Below, piece by piece: positions 3,782 through 43,530 of a DNA stretch of 64,000 nt; position 1 is the stretch's first letter; each line of letters begins with the position of its first letter. Below the pieces are notes generated by a model that saw nothing but the letters and a program-made list of their open reading frames with translations, was not told where the DNA came from and searched no databases. The position numbers were made by a program, and so were the translations under genes. The stretch is from Bacteroidales bacterium (GTDB lineage: Bacteria > Bacteroidota > Bacteroidia > Bacteroidales > UBA3824): assembly GCA_017412115.1 (NCBI GenBank), contig JAFPYR010000128.1, positions 12,679 to 76,678 of the forward strand, in the 5' to 3' direction.

Positions 3782-3801
3782 TAACATACACACCATGCAC
3801 C

Positions 3802-4004
3802 TCGGCTATCATAGAGACTGTCAATGACGAACAGAAAAACATAGCTCAAGTTGAACACTCAAGGCATCGGTCTATTAATAACTTCATAGTCAATATGCTT
3901 GGCGCAATTGCTGCTTATTGCTTGTTTCCGAAGAAACCGTGTATTGATTGTGAACGATATTTCGATAGGCAATTAACTTTATTCTAAATTCGTCGAACTC
4001 ACGT
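3802..4004 (+). mobile_element. IS982-family remnant: transposase C-terminus plus right terminal inverted repeat
   Basis: 3802-3987 translates SAIIETVNDEQKNIAQVEHSRHRSINNFIVNMLGAIAAYCLFPKKPCIDCERYFDRQLTLF*; end motif TCGAACTCACGT at 3993-4004. Confidence 0.85.
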
Positions 4005-34332: not shown

Positions 34333-37300
34333 GTGAAAGAAAAGTTAATAAAATTTCAGTTTCTTATATATGCGGTTATCCTTTTTATAACTGCCTCTGT
34401 ATTAGAATCATATCTGAGCGGTCTAAACTCGGGAGGCATCAATGTCGATAGAGTGGAGTCCGTGTTGCACCGTAAGGAGGCGGGATTGGATAGCGCAATC
34501 AATTTCATCAAAAACGAAATTGAGAGCGGGGAAAATCTCGTCAAGGAAAATTCCGTATGGGTTAGTTCGCGGGATTTAACCTACTTAAGGCGGCAGGGTC
34601 TTACCGTGCTTGTTTACGAAAACGACACGTTAAGATTTTGGACAGACAATACCGCACCTGCTGACCGATTGTATTCGCAATCGGCTCTCAACAACCGTAT
34701 CGCTAATCTTAACAATGCGTGGTACGAAATCCGTATGCTTAATAGCGGAAATCTTCGTTATGTTGGTCTTATTTTTATTAAAAACAAATATAATATCAAC
34801 AACAAATATCTCAAAAACGATTTTATGCCGGAATTGAATCTGCCATCTTCTGTACAGGTTTCAATGATTCCGCTAAGTTATAGTTTTGATATTAAGGACA
34901 AAGAAGACAAGTATATTTTCTCGTTGGTTCCAACCAATAGTTATGATATTGATTCTAACAGAGTTAATATTGCGGGAATATTGTTTTTTATGGCGTTGCT
35001 CTCTCTTTTGATTTATGTTTATTCTATAATTGATAATTTTACCAAGAAAGAGGGTAATTCGCTGAAAATCATTGCTATAATTTCAGGCGTTGTGATAGTG
35101 GCGTTTATAATGCTGATTTTCAGATTTCCGTTCAATGTTTATTCTTTGGACTTTTTTGACCCCGTTTATTTTTCCGGACCGGGTATTTTCAGAACAATCG
35201 GTGATTTTATTCTGAACGTTAGTTTTATGTTTGCCGTTGCGGTTTATGTTTTTAAACTCGCTGAATACAAGAGAATTAACGAGAAAATAAAAGAAATGCC
35301 CGATTCCAAATTTTTAACGGTTTGGTTTTCGGTTTTGGGTGCTGTTTTCTTGATTTTCGGCTACTTGTATCACGCTGCAAAACTTCTTGTTAAAGAGAGC
35401 AAAATTTCTTTTCAGCTGACAAATGTTATTTCGCTTGACATTTTCAGTTATTCGGGTATTTTGATAATGATAATCCTTGTTGGCATTATGATTTATGTTT
35501 TGATGCAGCTGACGGGTTATTTCAGATATTCGATTATAAAGGATTTCAAGAAAACGCTGATTTGTTTTGCTTTAGTTACTGCTCTGCTTTTTATTATAAC
35601 GGTTTTAATAACGGATTATAAAATTGCTTTTGCCTTTTTGTTTTTGATGCTTTTGACGGGCTCTGCTATGCTTACGCATTATCACAAAGCCGAAAAAAGT
35701 GTTTATCGTTATATTTTTATGGTGTTTTTGAGTGCGGTTTTCTCTTGTTTTTTAATAACGGTGACAACCGAAGAAAAACTCACTGAGGATACTAAAAAAT
35801 TTGTTACATATCCTTCCGACGAACACGATCAAATTGCGGAATTGCTGTTGAACGATATTTCCGAAAAACTTCCGAATGACGGCATGATTTCGGACTTTTT
35901 GCGCAAAACAGACCGTCAAGTCGGCGAAATAAAACTTCGTGATTATATTCAGCGTCAGTATTTTAACGGATATTGGAGCAAATATAATTTGAGTATCGGC
36001 ATTTTGGAATTTGCGCAAGGGGAGTTGTTTTCAAACTCTGACAGCGAATTTGCAAAAACCGTTAATGAATCGGCTTCGGAGGTCAACGGAACGGGATTTT
36101 ATTTCGTTGATAAACCCGACGGCACGATAAGTTATCTTGCGCCTTTGAGGTTTTCGGTTCAGGACAAAATCTGTTATGTCTGCATTTCGCTCGATTTGAA
36201 ACCCGTACCGCAAGAACTCGGTTATCCCGAATTGTTAATGGACAAAAATGTTAAGCCTTCTGTTATAAGCGGTTACGATTACGCAAAATATTGTAAAGGC
36301 AGAAAAGTTTCTCAAAACGGAGAGTTTTCTTACGACTTTTCCGATGAGGTTTTTATCGAGGCTTTTGACAAAACTTCCGATACGATAGCCGTTACAAAAC
36401 TTGCGGATTATGTTCATACGGTTTATCGTAACGGTGAAAATACGGTTGTGATTTCACGAAAATCTGTTTCGCTTTTGGAAATCGTAACGTGTTTTGCATA
36501 TTTGTTTATAATTTACATTTTTGTAATGCTTTTGGTCGTTGTTATACGACTGATTGTAATGCACAACACCGATTATCGTTATCAGATAAAAACGAGATTG
36601 ATTTTTTCAGTAACCTTTATTTTAATGCTTTCGTTTGTGTTGATTTGTCTTGGTTCTATATATCTTAATATCAGAACTTTCAGAGAAAATAATGCTCAAA
36701 GCATCGACGAAAAAGTTAAAAGCGTTTACATGGAATTGGAGCATACGTGTTCCGATACGTCAAAATTTCATTCGGTTTGGAATCCTAACGAAAATTCTGC
36801 AATGGACGAATATTTGATAGCTTTATCACATATTTTCTTCATTGACATCAACCTTTATGGTGCTGACGGAGAGTTAGTTGCAACTTCACGTCCGGAAATT
36901 TTCAAACAAGGTTTGATTTCAACGAGGCTCAATACAAAAGTTTTGCAGGAGTTTGTTATCGAGAGCAAATCGAATTATACTCAAGAGGAAAAAATCGGAA
37001 AAATGACATACGCCTCGGCGTACATTCCATTTTATAATTCTTCTGACGAATTAGCGGCTTATATCAACTTGCCGTATTTTACCAAGCCCGAGGTTTTGCA
37101 AAAAGAACTTGGAACTTTGATTGTTTCAATCGTGAATTTTTACGTTATCCTGATGATGATTTCAATCGTGATTGCCGTGATAATTTCCGAGAGGATTGTT
37201 CACCCGATTAAATTGATTCAGAATAAGTTGGAAAAAATAGAACTCGGTAAGCAACACGAAAAGATAGAGTACGGACGCAAAGACGAACTCGGACAACTTG

Positions 37301-38028
37301 TTGCCGAATACAATAGCATGGCTGAAAAATTGGAAGAAAGTGCCAAACTTTTAGCACAAGGCGAGCGTGAAAGCGCATGGCGTGAAATGGCAAAACAAAT
37401 TGCTCACGAAATCAAAAACCCGTTAACGCCGATGAAACTTTCCATTCAATTCCTCATGCGTAGTAAAGAAAACAACGATGCGGATTTTGATAAAAAATTG
37501 GAAAAAGTTTCCAATACGTTGATTCAGCAGATTGACACGTTGTCATCTATCGCAACGGGTTTCAGCAATTTCGCCAAAATGCCCAAACCAAACGAACATC
37601 CGTTCAACGTAATCGAAACACTTTCCAATGTGATTCAACTTTTTAACAACGTTGATAACATCGACATAACCTCAGACCTCGGCGGATACGAAGATATTAC
37701 AATCGTTGCTGACAAAGAACAAATTTCAAGGGTTTTTATCAACCTTATCAAAAACGCAACTCAAGCAATACCCGAAGGCGTCAGAGGTAAAATTCATGTT
37801 AGCCTCGAAAAACAGGACAAGCTGATAATTAAAATCTCCGACAATGGTTGCGGTATACCCGACGAAATACGCGGAAAACTTTTTACGCCAAGTTTCACAA
37901 CCAAATCCAGCGGCTCAGGTCTCGGCCTTGCAATGGTTAAAAACATAATAATCAACGCTAAAGGTAATATCACTTTCGAGTCCGAAGTCGGAAAAGGTAC
38001 TACTTTTATTGTTACGTTACCGTTGTAA
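34333..38028 (+). CDS. Large multi-TM HAMP sensor histidine kinase (NtrY-like)
   Basis: Many TM segments; DELGQLVAEYN; AWREMAKQIAHEIKNPLTPMKL; NLIKNA, DNGCGI, GSGLGLAMV. Confidence 0.9.
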   Translation: MKEKLIKFQFLIYAVILFITASVLESYLSGLNSGGINVDRVESVLHRKEAGLDSAINFIKNEIESGENLVKENSVWVSSRDLTYLRRQGLTVLVYENDTLRFWTDNTAPADRLYSQSALNNRIANLNNAWYEIRMLNSGNLRYVGLIFIKNKYNINNKYLKNDFMPELNLPSSVQVSMIPLSYSFDIKDKEDKYIFSLVPTNSYDIDSNRVNIAGILFFMALLSLLIYVYSIIDNFTKKEGNSLKIIAIISGVVIVAFIMLIFRFPFNVYSLDFFDPVYFSGPGIFRTIGDFILNVSFMFAVAVYVFKLAEYKRINEKIKEMPDSKFLTVWFSVLGAVFLIFGYLYHAAKLLVKESKISFQLTNVISLDIFSYSGILIMIILVGIMIYVLMQLTGYFRYSIIKDFKKTLICFALVTALLFIITVLITDYKIAFAFLFLMLLTGSAMLTHYHKAEKSVYRYIFMVFLSAVFSCFLITVTTEEKLTEDTKKFVTYPSDEHDQIAELLLNDISEKLPNDGMISDFLRKTDRQVGEIKLRDYIQRQYFNGYWSKYNLSIGILEFAQGELFSNSDSEFAKTVNESASEVNGTGFYFVDKPDGTISYLAPLRFSVQDKICYVCISLDLKPVPQELGYPELLMDKNVKPSVISGYDYAKYCKGRKVSQNGEFSYDFSDEVFIEAFDKTSDTIAVTKLADYVHTVYRNGENTVVISRKSVSLLEIVTCFAYLFIIYIFVMLLVVVIRLIVMHNTDYRYQIKTRLIFSVTFILMLSFVLICLGSIYLNIRTFRENNAQSIDEKVKSVYMELEHTCSDTSKFHSVWNPNENSAMDEYLIALSHIFFIDINLYGADGELVATSRPEIFKQGLISTRLNTKVLQEFVIESKSNYTQEEKIGKMTYASAYIPFYNSSDELAAYINLPYFTKPEVLQKELGTLIVSIVNFYVILMMISIVIAVIISERIVHPIKLIQNKLEKIELGKQHEKIEYGRKDELGQLVAEYNSMAEKLEESAKLLAQGERESAWREMAKQIAHEIKNPLTPMKLSIQFLMRSKENNDADFDKKLEKVSNTLIQQIDTLSSIATGFSNFAKMPKPNEHPFNVIETLSNVIQLFNNVDNIDITSDLGGYEDITIVADKEQISRVFINLIKNATQAIPEGVRGKIHVSLEKQDKLIIKISDNGCGIPDEIRGKLFTPSFTTKSSGSGLGLAMVKNIIINAKGNITFESEVGKGTTFIVTLPL

Positions 38029-38647: not shown

Positions 38648-39268
38648 TTATGCGTTTTTTATTAGTTGTATTGTTTCTTGTGGGGAGTCAGACAAGCTGA
38701 AGAGGTCGATGTCGGACTGTTTGATTGTTTTGTAATCGTTTTTTAGTGTATTTTTAAGCCAATCTGTCATTGGTTGCCAAAAATTTTTGTCTTGAAGTAT
38801 GAGCGGACGTTTTTCGATGTTTCCCATCTGCATAAGAGTCAGACATTCAGTGATTTCGTCTAACGTTCCTAATCCGCCTGGCAGAGCAATGAAAGCTTTG
38901 GCATATTTCCAAAACAGATATTTTCTTGCAGCCATATCGGTTAACAGGAGATGGTTTTCTTTGTCGATAAAATCGTTTTGAATACATATATCAGGAAATT
39001 CCATGCAAATTCCGATAGATTTTCCTTTGGCATTTTGAACACCTTTGTTAACGGCTTCCATTATGCCCGGACCGCCGCCTGTGATAACTTCAAAATCTGC
39101 ACGAGCGAGTTTTTCGCCCGTTAGGACTGCATCTTCGTAATATTTTGTACCCGCTTTGATTGATGACGAGCCGAAAACGCAAATGCAGTTTTTATGTTTG
39201 TCCAAAACACTTTTGGCATTTATGATTTCGTCCAAAGATTTTTGCAGTTTTTCTTTTTCTGTTAACAT
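38648..39268 (-). CDS. LOG-family nucleotide phosphoribohydrolase (Rossmann fold)
   Basis: VFGSS, ITGGGPGIMEAVNKG, ARK, PGGLGTLDE. Confidence 0.92.
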   Translation of the reverse strand: MLTEKEKLQKSLDEIINAKSVLDKHKNCICVFGSSSIKAGTKYYEDAVLTGEKLARADFEVITGGGPGIMEAVNKGVQNAKGKSIGICMEFPDICIQNDFIDKENHLLLTDMAARKYLFWKYAKAFIALPGGLGTLDEITECLTLMQMGNIEKRPLILQDKNFWQPMTDWLKNTLKNDYKTIKQSDIDLFSLSDSPQETIQLIKNA

Positions 39269-39348
39269 TTTTTCTTGATTAAAGTTTTATGCAAAAATAG
39301 AAATATTTTGTTTATTTTTGAAAAAATATTTGCACAAAAAAACTTATT

Positions 39349-40434
39349 ATGAAAATATTGAAAGAATTTAAACATTTTGTTTTCAGAGAATATCGAAGGC
39401 GTGAAATAAAAAAGCACGAACTTGATTATTTGTTTTGGGAGTGTACTTTGAGGTGCAATTTGAATTGTCTGCATTGTGGCAGCGATTGTTTGAAAAATTC
39501 TCAAATTTCTGATATGCCAAAAGAAGATTTTTTTTCGGTTTTGGATGATATTTCTTCTTCGGGTTTAAGTCGAAATCTTACAATTTGTATTACGGGAGGA
39601 GAGCCGCTTTTGAGGGAGGATTTGGAATTTGTGGGAAGAAAAATCCGCGAGAAAGGTTTTAAATGGGGAATTGTTACAAATGGCTTAATGCTTGATAGAA
39701 AGCGTTTTATTTCGCTTTTGAATGCTAAAATCTCGTCTCTTAGCATAAGTCTTGACGGTTTTGAATCGCAACACAACAAATTGCGCTGCAATTCTAATTC
39801 TTTTTCAAAGGCTTTTGAGGCTGTGAAAACGGCTGTGGAGTTTTCCAAAAAAGGTTTTCTTATTTTTGACGTTATAACTTGTGTTAGCAGTTTGAACTTT
39901 TCTTCGCTTGAAAAATTTCGTGATTTTTTGATTGATAGCGGAGTAAAAAGATGGCGGATTTTTTCGATTTTTTCAAACGGTAGGGCGGACAAAAACTCCG
40001 AAATTCTTTCACTTTCAAAAACGCAATACAGAGAATTGTTGGATTTTATAAGTTTTACACGAAAAAATTTTGGAGATAAAATCAGTTTAAATTATTCTTG
40101 TGAAGGCTTTTTAGGGGATTATGAATTGGAAGTCAGAGATTATTTTTATTTCTGTCGGGCGGGAATTTCTGTCGCCTCAGTTATGTGTGATGGAAGCCTA
40201 ACGGGTTGTCTTAGTGTTAGGGCGAAGGATTTTATTCAAGGCAACGTTTACGAAAAAAGTTTTTCAGAAATTTGGAAAAACGGTTTTTCTATTATGCGGG
40301 ATAGGAGCTGGGCTAAAAAAAATAAATGTCAAAAATGTAGTTTTTGGCAAAAATGTTTAGGCGGCGGACTTCATCTTTATAAAAGTGTTGATTCAGAGAT
40401 TTCTCATTGCAATTTGAAGGATTTTTTAACTTGA
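39349..40434 (+). CDS. Radical SAM/SPASM enzyme of the Bacteroidota rSAM/lipoprotein system (TIGR04133-like)
   Basis: FWECTLRCNLNCLHCGSDC (CxxxCxxC), ITGGEPLLR, ISLDG; SPASM C-x..DGSLTGC..QGNV..CQKCSFWQKCLGGG; lipoprotein partner nearby. Confidence 0.85.
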   Translation: MKILKEFKHFVFREYRRREIKKHELDYLFWECTLRCNLNCLHCGSDCLKNSQISDMPKEDFFSVLDDISSSGLSRNLTICITGGEPLLREDLEFVGRKIREKGFKWGIVTNGLMLDRKRFISLLNAKISSLSISLDGFESQHNKLRCNSNSFSKAFEAVKTAVEFSKKGFLIFDVITCVSSLNFSSLEKFRDFLIDSGVKRWRIFSIFSNGRADKNSEILSLSKTQYRELLDFISFTRKNFGDKISLNYSCEGFLGDYELEVRDYFYFCRAGISVASVMCDGSLTGCLSVRAKDFIQGNVYEKSFSEIWKNGFSIMRDRSWAKKNKCQKCSFWQKCLGGGLHLYKSVDSEISHCNLKDFLT

Positions 40435-40569
40435 AAAAAAGGAAATGCGCTGTCGTTTGAAAAAAAAATATTCCTTTTTGTGCACATTTTAATTAAAAAG
40501 TTTGTATGTTTGCATCTGTAAAATGATTATGCCGGTTGGCTAAAACAAATTTTTAAATACTATAAATCA

Positions 40570-40791
40570 ATGAAATCAAAATTAGTGGCATATTTGCTAT
40601 GGTTTTTTTTAGGAGTATTTGGTGTTCATAAATTCTACTTACACAAATGGTTGTGGGGCGTATTATATTTTTTTACTGGTGGTTTTGCTTGTATAGGTTG
40701 GTTGATAGACCTATTCACGCTTGGAACGCAAGTTGATGCCTACAATTTAGCAACCTTCAATAAAAAACTTATTGAAAATAATATTAAGTAG
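40570..40791 (+). CDS. TM2/NINE domain small membrane protein
   Basis: KSKLVAYLLWFFLGVFGVHKFYL..FTGG..IGWLIDLF; own -7 element TATGTTTG at 40505-40512. Confidence 0.88.
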   Translation: MKSKLVAYLLWFFLGVFGVHKFYLHKWLWGVLYFFTGGFACIGWLIDLFTLGTQVDAYNLATFNKKLIENNIK

Positions 40792-40827
40792 TTTTTTTTA
40801 AGTCCTAAAAATTTAGGAGGAAAAATT

Positions 40828-41193
40828 ATGAAATGTTTTAAAAAAATATCCGCCTCGTTGTTGGCATTTTTCGGTATCGGGACTTTAACGGCTTGTTACG
40901 GAATGCCTCCGCAAAATTTTGACGAGGCGTTTACGGTTTACGGGCGCGTTTCAAAAATTGACGGTAACGGAGATACCGTTAATCTCGAGGGAATAAAAGT
41001 CTCCGTTTTGGGTGCTCCTGAAATTTTTACGCAAACCGACGAAAGCGGTTATTATGAGCTTACCTTTACGGATTCCTCAGTGCAGACAATCTGTTTTGAG
41101 AGCACAAATTTTGAGAATGATACCGTCAAAATTCGTTTTAACACGCCCGGACCTCAAACTTGCGATGTGTTGTTGAAAGAAAATAAAGAGTAA
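40828..41193 (+). CDS. Radical-SAM-associated lipoprotein (TIGR04134-like) with a carboxypeptidase-regulatory-like beta domain
   Basis: Lipobox LTA-C23 followed by YGMP; then VYGRV..LEGIKVSV..TQTDESGYYEL. Confidence 0.75.
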   Translation: MKCFKKISASLLAFFGIGTLTACYGMPPQNFDEAFTVYGRVSKIDGNGDTVNLEGIKVSVLGAPEIFTQTDESGYYELTFTDSSVQTICFESTNFENDTVKIRFNTPGPQTCDVLLKENKE

Positions 41194-41208
41194 TTTTTTT
41201 CCCCTTTT

Positions 41209-41655
41209 TTATCTCTTAATAACACTCAAAATTGCAACTGCGCACGTTGTTTTAGGGCTCAGCGGCATGATGTGAACCCAATAAACATCGGTTTTGGGAC
41301 AGAAAAACGTAAATTTAAAATTTCTTGTCGTCGTTGCTAAAATATTATTGTTGTTATCATAAAGCGATAACATTGAGTTTACCGCAAGTCCTGTGGCTAA
41401 AGATGAATTTCCCTCTTCGAGATATTGTGAGTCGGAGGGGTTGCAAAGTTGTAAAGTGTACATATATCCTTTGTTGAGGATAACTTTGTGTTTTTGAATT
41501 TTTCCTGATGAGAATTTCGTGTTGAATTCTTTTAAGAAAATAACGCCGGAGTTTTGCAAAGCACACTCGTACACAAATCTTTGTTTGCATTGAGCATTAA
41601 CGCAAAGACTTGATAATGTGATGAATATAACGATAACTAATCTTAGTAACTTCAT
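41209..41655 (-). CDS. Secreted hypothetical protein
   Basis: Signal peptide MKLLRLVIV..VNA-Q; Cys-containing small beta protein. Confidence 0.7.
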   Translation of the reverse strand: MKLLRLVIVIFITLSSLCVNAQCKQRFVYECALQNSGVIFLKEFNTKFSSGKIQKHKVILNKGYMYTLQLCNPSDSQYLEEGNSSLATGLAVNSMLSLYDNNNNILATTTRNFKFTFFCPKTDVYWVHIMPLSPKTTCAVAILSVIKR

Positions 41656-41745: not shown

Positions 41746-42519
41746 ATGTCTACGTTTTTGTTTCACGATTTGGTTTACGGACCCGTAAAATCCAGACGGC
41801 TTGGAAATTCTCTCGGTATTAATTTGTTACCAAGAGAAAAAAAATATTGTAATTTCAATTGTATTTATTGCGAATGTGGAGCTAATATTCCGGGGCATGT
41901 AGGATTTTTGCCGGGGCGTGCGGAAATTGCTGCTGCTTTAGAAAAAAAACTTATTGAACTCAAAGAAAAAAACGAAAGGGTTGATTCAATAACTTTCGCC
42001 GGAAACGGAGAGCCTACAATTCACCCCGATTTTCACGAAGTAATTTCTGATACCGTTAATTTAAGAAATAAGTTTTTTCCTGATGCAAAAATTTCCGTTT
42101 TGAGCAATGCAACACGGATTGTAAGCAAAAATACTGTTGCAACTCTCAAGATGATAGATAATTGCATTTTGAAAATTGACGCAGGTATCGAAGAAACCGC
42201 CAAAGCAATCGACCGTCCCGTCGGAAATTATTCTTTGAAAAAGCAAGTGGAACTTCTTAAACAATTTGACGGAAATTTTGTGCTTCAAACGATGTTTTTA
42301 TCGGGCGATGTTAACGGTAAAAAAATTGACAATACAACGCCGGAAGAAGTTTCGGCATGGCTGAAAATTGTTGAAGAATTGCGTCCGAAAAAAGTTATGA
42401 TTTACACCATTGCTCGCGATACGCCGGAAAAAAATCTCCAAAAAGCCTCAAAAGAAACTCTTGATAATATTCAAAAAAAGGTTCAGGATTTGGGAATTGA
42501 AATTTCGGTTTCGTATTAG
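41746..42519 (+). CDS. Radical SAM protein (COG0731/TYW1-like bacterial family)
   Basis: YGPVKSRRLGNSLGINLL, CNFNCIYCECG, ITFAGNGEPTIHP. Confidence 0.88.
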   Translation: MSTFLFHDLVYGPVKSRRLGNSLGINLLPREKKYCNFNCIYCECGANIPGHVGFLPGRAEIAAALEKKLIELKEKNERVDSITFAGNGEPTIHPDFHEVISDTVNLRNKFFPDAKISVLSNATRIVSKNTVATLKMIDNCILKIDAGIEETAKAIDRPVGNYSLKKQVELLKQFDGNFVLQTMFLSGDVNGKKIDNTTPEEVSAWLKIVEELRPKKVMIYTIARDTPEKNLQKASKETLDNIQKKVQDLGIEISVSY

Positions 42520-42528
42520 AAAAAAACA

Positions 42529-43530
42529 GTGAAAATAATTTCAGACATAAAGTGTAAAAACGTGCTTGTCAGTCCTTTAGATTGGGGATTAGGACATTCC
42601 TCAAGAATGATTCCCGTGATTGAAGAACTGAAAAAACATCAAAACCGTGTAACAATAGTTTGCGGTTTGGGCAGTTATGATTTTTTACGGGCGGAACTTT
42701 TAGGTTTTGAAATTATTAAAATCAAAGAAAAACGCATAAAATATCCTCAAGGAAAAATTAATTTTTTTACTTTTCTTGATTGGATTTTCGTTATGCTTTT
42801 TAATACTGTTAACGAGAAACTGAAAATCAAAAAAATAATCCGAGAAAAAAATATTGAGGTTGTAATTTCTGATAACCGTTACGGTCTGAATTTCAAAGGG
42901 TTGGAATGTTATATCGTGACACATCAAATATGTCCGAGATTGCCTAAAGGAATTAAAATTTTTCAGAGAATTTCGGATTTTGTTTTCATCGCGGTATTGA
43001 AGCGGTTCAAAAAAGTTTTGATTCCGGATTTAGAAACAGGATTTTCTTTGACAGGAAAACTTGGCGCGGATTCCTCTGACGAAAAGAAATTTGTTAAAAT
43101 CGGAATTTTATCACGTTTTTCTTCTGAAAAAAACATTGAAATTACTAAAAAATATGATTATTTGATTTTGATTTCGGGACAAGAAAAACAACGCACCGTT
43201 TTTGAAAAATTTTTGTTAAAGAAAATATCAAAAACTGATAAAAAAATACTTTTCGTCCGCGGTGTTTTTTCTTCTCAAATCTCTGAATTAAAGGATTGTA
43301 ATAACATAAAATTTCTAAATAATTTAACGGGGAAAAAATTAATGCAAGCTTTTTTGGAGGCCGAAACAGTGATTTGCAGGGCGGGTTATAGTACAATTTG
43401 CGATATTATGGCGTTGAACAAAAAAGCGATTATTTTTCCAACCCCCGGTCAGACGGAACAGGAATTTTTGGCACAAAGGCTTAACAAAAAATACGGTTTT
43501 GTTCTCGGTGATAATTCTTTGTCGTTCTGA
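42529..43530 (+). CDS. GT-B glycosyltransferase (GT28/MurG-like C-terminal domain)
   Basis: PLDWGLGHSSR, ISDNRYG, VICRAGYSTICD, PTPGQTEQEFLA. Confidence 0.88.
   Translation: MKIISDIKCKNVLVSPLDWGLGHSSRMIPVIEELKKHQNRVTIVCGLGSYDFLRAELLGFEIIKIKEKRIKYPQGKINFFTFLDWIFVMLFNTVNEKLKIKKIIREKNIEVVISDNRYGLNFKGLECYIVTHQICPRLPKGIKIFQRISDFVFIAVLKRFKKVLIPDLETGFSLTGKLGADSSDEKKFVKIGILSRFSSEKNIEITKKYDYLILISGQEKQRTVFEKFLLKKISKTDKKILFVRGVFSSQISELKDCNNIKFLNNLTGKKLMQAFLEAETVICRAGYSTICDIMALNKKAIIFPTPGQTEQEFLAQRLNKKYGFVLGDNSLSF

Follow-up and report, generated by a model that had tools for sequence, protein, structure and literature searches.

The window analysed here is a stretch of 64,000 nucleotides (nt) from contig C84 of a 4.09 Mb genome assembly (G000, 132 contigs) of a Bacteroidales bacterium, which its close relatives indicate to be a rumen organism. 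Three genes of interest are present, all on the + strand. A radical S-adenosylmethionine (SAM)/SPASM enzyme of the TIGR04133 family (361 amino acids (aa), 39349-40434) is followed by an open reading frame (ORF) for a small TM2-domain membrane protein (73 aa, 40570-40791; PF05154, E 7.7e-19) and by a 121-aa lipoprotein (40828-41193), a divergent relative of the TIGR04134 family and the presumed substrate of the enzyme. The enzyme and lipoprotein ORFs are both intact. The lipoprotein ORF starts 393 nt past the enzyme stop codon, and the TM2 ORF lies within this spacer. A preliminary description of the window had reported an enzyme with a CxxxCxxC motif and a SPASM domain and, after a gap of 394 bp, a 121-aa lipoprotein reading LTA-C23-Y24-G25. 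The two proteins, the position of the motif and the spacing are all borne out, but the TM2 ORF inside the gap was overlooked.

The enzyme scores 451.6 bits against TIGR04133 (rSAM_w_lipo; E 1.5e-135, model positions 9-347 of 350), above the cut-off of 425, and is thus a member of the family; the same protein scores 451.2 bits in the genome search. Pfam detects the Radical_SAM domain (PF04055, 66.4 bits) and the SPASM domain (PF13186, E 1.2e-7, residues 269-330). TIGR04085 matches the SPASM auxiliary-cluster domain too, scoring 34.0 bits where 27 is required (40153-40365, + strand; C84:52831-53043). The radical SAM [4Fe-4S] motif, C36-x3-C40-x2-C43, is encoded at 39454-39477 (+). Cysteines C36, C40, C43, C47, C251, C269, C287, C327, C330, C336 and C354 are invariant in all 35 aligned family enzymes. 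H342 is, beside C47, a further invariant extra in this set.

The SPASM motif of the enzyme reads C327-x2-C330-x5-C336 (residues 327-354, 40327-40410), with a Gly at the usual fourth-Cys position of CX2CX5CX3C. No invariant Cys occupies this position among the 35 aligned enzymes. As judged from the motif, the missing fourth Cys may keep an auxiliary-cluster site free for possible ligation by a side chain of the substrate. The cluster motif starts after just 35 residues, which leaves no room for an N-terminal recognition element (RRE) domain of the kind found with peptides that are ribosomally made and then modified after translation (RiPPs). The NCBIfam families that score next are NirJ2 (120.6 bits), rad_SAM_trio and AhbD (113.8 bits each), followed by TIGR04053 (108.2 bits), TIGR04347 (104.1 bits) and TIGR04103 (101.3 bits, ranked seventh). 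A sequence search of solved structures with the enzyme returned no splicease, the top match being 7vob (E 1.2e-12).

The N-terminus of the lipoprotein, as read from the sequence, consists of MKCFKK, a hydrophobic core and the lipobox L-T-A-C23 (signal peptide at 40828-40896, +). The lipobox Cys is directly followed by Tyr-Gly. The resulting C23-Y24-G25 motif (codons TGT TAC GGA, 40894-40902, +) continues into M-P-P and is the presumed modification site. No NCBIfam model matches the protein even at E 10, TIGR04134 (cut-off 39.8 bits) included. The lipoprotein shares 37% identity with the partner encoded at a related locus, L015 (BLASTP E 2e-24), which itself scores 41.0 bits on TIGR04134 (lipo_with_rSAM). 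A direct BLASTP comparison with the canonical partner of locus L027 is not significant. Using hhalign, the profile of the window clade aligns with a profile of 17 canonical partners (99.5%, E 2.4e-22), placing YG on YG. By these profile comparisons, the window lipoprotein is a divergent homologue of the TIGR04134 family. The TIGR04133/TIGR04134 gene pair had been named in the preliminary description. This assignment holds for the enzyme, which is over the cut-off, and for the partner as a divergent relative, although the partner fails the TIGR04134 model itself.

The AlphaFold2 model of the lipoprotein, calculated with a 36-row partner alignment, has a mean predicted local distance difference test (pLDDT) score of 83.9. 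Residues 35-111 (40930-41160, +) form a predicted transthyretin (TTR)-like/CarboxypepD_reg-like β-sandwich with pLDDT values of 88-97, while residues 1-33 remain at 54-58. Foldseek matches the model to the teneurin TTR domain (8fia, E 8.5e-8). Further matches are the TTR-like domains of carboxypeptidases D, N and M and the NTE domains of SusC proteins (6ytc, 9hfj). The Pfam family CarbopepD_reg_2 (PF13715) scores 25.8 bits, under its cut-off of 32.2. In the model, Y24-G25 is located in a predicted flexible tether between the anchor Cys and the fold. A second YG, V37-Y38-G39 (40936-40944, +), lies 14 residues past Y24. It had been pointed out before and is indeed present, but it falls within the first predicted β-strand (residues 35-44) and is specific to the clade: Y38 is found only in the window clade and in locus L062, while G39 is kept in at least 90% of partners. 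The D-x-D-G-x-x-N-G motif, which most partners retain, is lost in the window lipoprotein.

The partner proteins of 57 loci of the family were compared, comprising the window, a second pair in the same genome, six further loci and 49 others. A hidden Markov model (HMM) of the partner, made from 24 seeds chosen by a YG-containing pattern, found 42 homologous ORFs, one per locus. Tyr-Gly is present near the N-terminus in 40 of these; one of the others is cut by the end of its locus, and the partner of L068 differs. The 36-row alignment leaves out the cut fragment of L036, L068, L040 (GTG start), the longer proteins of L042 and L049, and L026, the partner of which is the same as that of L025 over the printed stretch, with almost identical enzymes. 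All 36 of the 36 aligned partners contain Y24 and G25, a count that is inflated rather than unbiased because the rows derive from HMM hits seeded with a YG pattern. The only other invariant residues are M1 and G74, and P27, G39 and D92 are kept in at least 90% of the rows. Among 35 distinct sequence contexts, Y and G occur in all 35, a Pro at +3 from the Tyr in 31 and a Tyr or Phe at +7 in 23. The residue before the Tyr varies (C in 15 contexts, E in 9, M in 4, and A, L and Q in 2 each). At +2, T, V, M, A, C and P occur, but G never does.

While the dipeptide is constant, its surroundings are not. In 19 of the 42 detected partners, YG comes immediately after the lipobox Cys. This arrangement is the rule in three clades: the window clade (LTAC-YG), a clade of 13 (FQAC-YGTPQD) and a clade below the TIGR04133 threshold (AAC-YG[VT]P). 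Another 19 partners have 2-15 residues between Cys and YG, the arrangement of the canonical clade. The use of the lipid-anchor Cys as the X of an XYG motif, pointed out for the window gene in the preliminary description, is not peculiar to it, being general in three clades and absent from the canonical one. The Cys-to-YG distance is 0-15 residues in β-sandwich partners and reaches about 30-60 residues in other partners. The partners of L042 (495-1265, -) and L049 (2561-3271, +) do not have a lipobox Cys at all. They are longer (237-257 aa, two β-sandwich matches), and their signal peptides end in ..IIAQ-YG and ..LFAQ-YG. Judging by the sequence, the AQ-YG junction looks like a signal peptidase I site that would expose Gln-Tyr-Gly. 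Tandem YG repeats are found in the partners of L031, L033, L040 and L045.

The motif is also present where the β-sandwich is missing. At L036, L041, L043, L044 and L048, 2-4 short lipoprotein ORFs of about 50-120 aa, without a β-sandwich, lie upstream of the enzyme. L018 has two short lipoprotein ORFs in which YG is followed by G or R and not by P; the single one of L035 terminates in ..LYGVRP. The majority of the short ORFs end in K-YG-[VITAG]P-x-x-[YF]; beside YG, no second invariant residue is found in these short partners. A further type, lipoproteins of L034, L037 and L039 with a non-β-sandwich (coiled-coil by eye) architecture, carries C[LV]YG[ST]PE. Tyr-Gly is thus the constant of the compared partner sequences, while the domain, the distance to the Cys and the Cys itself vary. 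Its retention in an unstructured stretch through domain loss, changes of the spacer, loss of the Cys and multiplication of the precursors is what we read as the mark of a modification site.

The pairing of enzyme and partner is conserved as well. An adjacent, same-strand ORF with a signal peptide and YG is found in 52 of the 54 loci that have more than 300 nt upstream of the enzyme; L017 and L064 are ambiguous, while L047, L069 and L070 are truncated. The ORFs on either side serve as a rough control: YG occurs in the upstream-adjacent ORF of 47 of 53 loci and in the downstream-adjacent ORF of 18 of 50. A lenient scan for signal-type ORFs yielded 253 ORFs, 109 of them with YG, and is too unspecific to serve as evidence. 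The genome of the window itself provides another comparison. A crude scan detected 383 lipoprotein candidates, of which two contain C-Y-G, namely the window partner and what is probably a membrane protein. Three of the 383 have YG.P no further than 45 residues from the Cys, and two of these adjoin the two TIGR04133 enzymes of the genome. The preliminary description had named a lack of YG conservation among the partners, and of conservation of the gene neighbourhood, as grounds for abandoning its proposal. Since YG, mostly as YG-x-P, is the invariant feature of the aligned partners and the pairing is conserved, neither of these was found.

At the two ambiguous loci, the YG ORFs are of a different kind. 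L064 contains a 70-aa ORF downstream of the enzyme (2538-2748), without a signal peptide and with two YGP-x-P sites. L017 contains a 42-aa ORF (3797-3923), also without a signal peptide, with ..VYGPPP at the N-terminal side and a hydrophobic stretch at the C-terminal side.

A TIGR04133-like gene (E 1e-60 or better) is present in 47 of 201 sampled Bacteroidales genomes. The gene scores over the family cut-off in 42 of them, and nine genomes have two copies. In a phylum-wide sample of 401 genomes, it was detected in G000 and in three of the seven other genomes of the same order, while the 393 Bacteroidota sampled from other orders yielded none. The maximum-likelihood tree of the enzymes (61 rows, including four distant outgroups on very long branches) places the window enzyme in a separate clade with those of L014, L015 and L016 (support 100/100). 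A clade of six enzymes scores under the TIGR04133 cut-off (99/95), and the 13 enzymes mentioned above form another clade (92/87). Canonical enzymes fall into several groups, and the tree gives no firm branching order among the clades and groups.

The TM2 ORF between enzyme and lipoprotein is seen only in the window and in L014, a relative with 95% identity. L015 and L016, with enzymes 67% and 63% identical to that of the window, keep the enzyme-then-lipoprotein order and the LTAC-YG motif. Here the lipoprotein begins 22 and 3 nt after the enzyme, without a TM2 ORF. The TM2 ORF is probably an insertion and not a component of the enzyme/lipoprotein family.

The second pair of the same genome, on contig C38 (L001 362-2187, also L009), is a canonical TIGR04133/TIGR04134 system. 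The gene of its TIGR04133 enzyme (536.8 bits) is immediately preceded by that of a 162-aa TIGR04134 lipoprotein (99.8-100 bits). An additional 79-aa lipoprotein ORF, ending in ..ALYGVPSS.., is present upstream. The genome of Bacteroides thetaiotaomicron, searched as a control, likewise has hits above the cut-offs of both families.

The pair as such is already catalogued, TIGR04133 and TIGR04134 being NCBIfam hypothetical equivalogs without an assigned function. The window locus shares with it the family membership of the enzyme, the homology of the partner, the adjacency of the two genes, the lipobox, YG-x-P and the β-sandwich. There are also differences. In the window, the partner is located downstream rather than upstream of the enzyme and scores below the TIGR04134 model. 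Its YG abuts the lipobox Cys instead of lying 2-15 residues further on, the D-x-D-G-x-x-N-G motif is lost, the TM2 gene is inserted, and the enzyme belongs to the separate clade (4 rows, 100/100). Our search of the open literature returned no description of the chemistry or the YG motif of the TIGR04133/TIGR04134 system, although Scott et al. (2022, Chem 8:2659) may list or have tested the type. In a survey of Bacteroidales RiPPs (PMC10352776), the word 'lipoprotein' is absent.

We propose that the two genes would constitute a self-contained maturase-substrate module of Bacteroidales. The cytoplasmic TIGR04133 enzyme would act on the unfolded lipoprotein precursor ahead of its export through the Sec pathway. 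Radical SAM enzymes depend on the reducing conditions of the cytoplasm and the partner is exported, so that any action would have to take place on the precursor before Sec export. This topology, which the preliminary description had also assumed, is the only one open to such an enzyme. The signal peptide would probably serve as the leader, or activating helix, of the enzyme, a role that is plausible for the signal-peptide helix given an enzyme without an RRE. The target would be the invariant Tyr-Gly in the tether between the lipid-anchor Cys and the β-sandwich. From the conservation pattern, we infer that the partner is the substrate, and we consider it likely that the enzyme modifies it at or next to YG.

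The likeliest chemistry would be a splicease-type removal of a tyramine equivalent (-C8H9NO, -135.07 Da), the spliced residue in the window gene being the lipidated Cys23. As an assignment made from motif comparison, tyramine excision is tentative, and we regard it as possible rather than probable. The mechanism as a whole, with the tyramine chemistry included, would fall somewhat short of an even chance. A wider generalisation is more doubtful still. According to it, Bacteroidales would produce a family of ribosomally encoded, lipid-anchored ketoamide (β-amino acid) proteins and peptides, the Sec signal peptide would double as a RiPP leader, the YG core would be exported and fixed to the membrane, and three clades, that of the window among them, would splice the lipidated Cys itself, placing an electrophilic warhead at the anchor.

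The similarity to the substrate motif of spliceases (PlpX, PcpX, RhaX and relatives) is the basis of the proposed chemistry. Going by PMC11414181 and PMC10533398, tyramine excision by spliceases is the sole characterised radical SAM reaction with an invariant Y-G and a free preceding residue. The splicease motif is given as X-Y-G with variable X in PMC11414181, and the PlpA splice tags as ..P[LG]YGLPI, i.e. YG-x-P, in PMC10533398. Non-cyanobacterial (binary) spliceases are described in PMC11414181 as functioning without a Y protein and as activated by a leader helix. The screen of all rSAM-SPASM enzymes for YG-rich neighbours by Scott et al. (2022), as summarized in reviews, led to 27 confirmed pairs and, according to PMC10533398, 939 predicted systems.

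The TIGR04133 systems share with the spliceases a radical SAM/SPASM enzyme, an X-Y-G motif in the presumed substrate, YG-x-P as in the PlpA tags, and several YG sites or precursors per locus. As in the binary systems, a separate RRE protein is missing. The presumed substrates differ in that they are precursors of the Sec/lipoprotein pathway, some of them with a folded domain, and do not carry leaders of the Nif11/NHLP type. In addition, no peptidase-transporter gene is present.

A topological precedent is provided by the anaerobic sulfatase-maturating enzymes (anSMEs). These RRE-free SPASM radical SAM enzymes of the cytoplasm act on a short motif of unfolded signal-peptide proteins before export. 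The window enzyme scores 63 bits on the anSME family TIGR03942 (cut-off 349), the anSME motif and chemistry concern the conversion of Cys or Ser to formylglycine, and there is no one-to-one pairing of an anSME gene with one substrate gene.

Several observations weigh against the proposed splicing of the partner. The TIGR04103 score of the window enzyme, 101.3 bits, compares with a cut-off of 725, which excludes it from the family that we take to be that of PlpX (IPR026482, as named in PMC11002830). The enzyme is no closer to TIGR04103 than to the NirJ/Ahb families, and no true TIGR04103 member is found among the 401 Bacteroidota genomes. The partner of L068 reads C-Y-A in place of C-Y-G, while a second ORF of this locus reads CYGSP. 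The selection of the HMM seeds by YG, noted above, lowers the weight of the alignment count. In the window, the enzyme is parted from its partner by a 393-nt spacer with another gene. Finally, no conserved neighbours beyond the pair are seen in 17 loci, and there is no helpful protease or transporter context.

In favour of tyramine excision, the window enzyme resembles TIGR04103-like enzymes of other Bacteroidota (108-134 bits) more than it does the remaining SPASM enzymes encoded in the same genome (39-54 bits). Another family of the same class was observed at L071 (G435:C2) and L072 (G293:C2). Its TIGR04103-like enzymes score 424 and 418 bits, below the cut-off of 725, and each is preceded by two ORFs of 56-58 aa. 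One of the two begins MGIMMP-YG-AA, and the other has no YG. Judging by the sequences, L071 and L072 may represent a splicease-type system in which the core is N-terminal.

Three other explanations have to be considered. The same pair and site could be subject to a different Tyr radical chemistry: a Tyr side-chain crosslink or three-residue cyclophane to the +2 residue, a link between Cys and Tyr or between Tyr and the aromatic residue at +7, epimerisation, or Cα/Cβ cleavage without re-ligation. SPASM enzymes perform many such reactions, and the TIGR04133 enzyme is equidistant from many maturase families. The residue at +2, which is never Gly, and the aromatic residue at +7 in 23 of 35 contexts are both possible crosslink partners, and the Gly in place of the fourth SPASM Cys could free a cluster site for a substrate side chain. 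In the known triceptide-type cyclophane and crosslink motifs, the third residue is the conserved one. The pair that is invariant here is exactly Tyr and Gly with a free preceding residue, which is the hallmark of spliceases and unlike these motifs, and the short partners do not offer a second invariant residue. We regard a different chemistry at this site as possible, if somewhat less likely than tyramine excision; it is the most serious of the three. Alternatively, the lipoprotein might not be a substrate at all. YG-x-P would then be a structural, sorting or processing motif, and the enzyme would make or modify a cofactor, a lipid or another protein. The position of YG at +2/+3 of the mature protein in three clades, where lipoprotein sorting signals are located, would fit this explanation. 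The nearest NCBIfam neighbours of the enzyme include the heme-modifying NirJ/Ahb enzymes, and RNA-library contigs join the lipoprotein with the TM2 gene, while those of the enzyme are apart. A fixed sorting role is made unlikely by the Cys-YG distance, which is 0-15 residues in β-sandwich partners and reaches about 30-60 in other partners, and by the two partners without the Cys. A structural role in the fold is equally unlikely, as YG outlives the loss of the whole folded domain. The arrays of short YG ORFs beside a single enzyme resemble precursor arrays. We consider a non-substrate role improbable.

It is also conceivable, if highly improbable, that the adjacency in the window is incidental, the true partner being encoded elsewhere or the pair being in decay. 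The unrelated gene in the 393-nt spacer would agree with this, as would a partner that lies under every NCBIfam threshold and has lost the D-x-D-G-x-x-N-G motif. The same layout is found at 95% identity in L014, however, and the direct order with LTAC-YG in L015 and L016. Both ORFs are intact, and the lipoprotein is covered by RNA-library contigs.

For years, the TIGR04133/TIGR04134 pair has stood in the catalogue with no function assigned to it; it is frequent in the Bacteroidales, the dominant order of gut and rumen communities. With Tyr-Gly in an exposed tether as the sole constant of the partners, the question of function is narrowed to a mass shift at one dipeptide. If tyramine excision is the reaction, backbone-spliced β-amino acids would extend beyond secreted peptides to lipoproteins in the envelope of commensals, and a signal peptide would be able to act as the leader of a maturase. 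The product would be a ketoamide of natural origin tethered to the membrane, which might act in the control of proteases or in covalent tethering. Another chemistry, too, would represent a novel modification of envelope proteins in Bacteroidales.

The region is matched, at 92-99% likeness, by contigs from four metatranscriptome libraries of three studies. The TM2 gene and the lipoprotein lie together on single contigs (X17, 40561-41300; X18, 40551-41150; X15, 40562-40925), and short, separate contigs cover 39343-39833 of the enzyme gene. The stretch 39839-40548 is covered by no contig of the four libraries, which carries no weight as evidence. The three contigs that begin at 40551-40562 are not taken to mark a transcript start, the RNA-library contigs indicating presence and not transcript structure. 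A promoter and terminator scan, which does not cover Bacteroidota promoters, found no + strand site between the enzyme and lipoprotein genes; its totals were 10 promoter-like sites, where 6.3 +/- 2.4 would be expected, and 2 terminator-like sites, where the figure is 1.7.

Serine peptidase genes adjoin the pair in four of the 17 loci, which may be due to chance in peptidase-rich genomes. They encode an S33/S9-like enzyme (L051), an S41 tricorn-like enzyme (L053), an S8 enzyme with a type IX secretion system (T9SS) tail (L062) and an S9 prolyl oligopeptidase (L067). In the window, the gene upstream of the enzyme (38648-39268, -) is divergent and encodes a protein of the LOG/TIGR00730 family (131.9 bits). 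Further upstream lies a 1231-aa ORF with many hydrophobic stretches (34333-38028, +), a histidine kinase by eye only. Downstream of the lipoprotein, a 257-aa radical SAM protein without a SPASM domain is encoded at 41746-42519 (+; PF04055, E 7.8e-11). It shows weak viperin-like and NrdG-like matches and is kept in L014 too. Directly after it follows a 333-aa ORF (42529-43530, +), which by eye alone resembles a glycosyltransferase.

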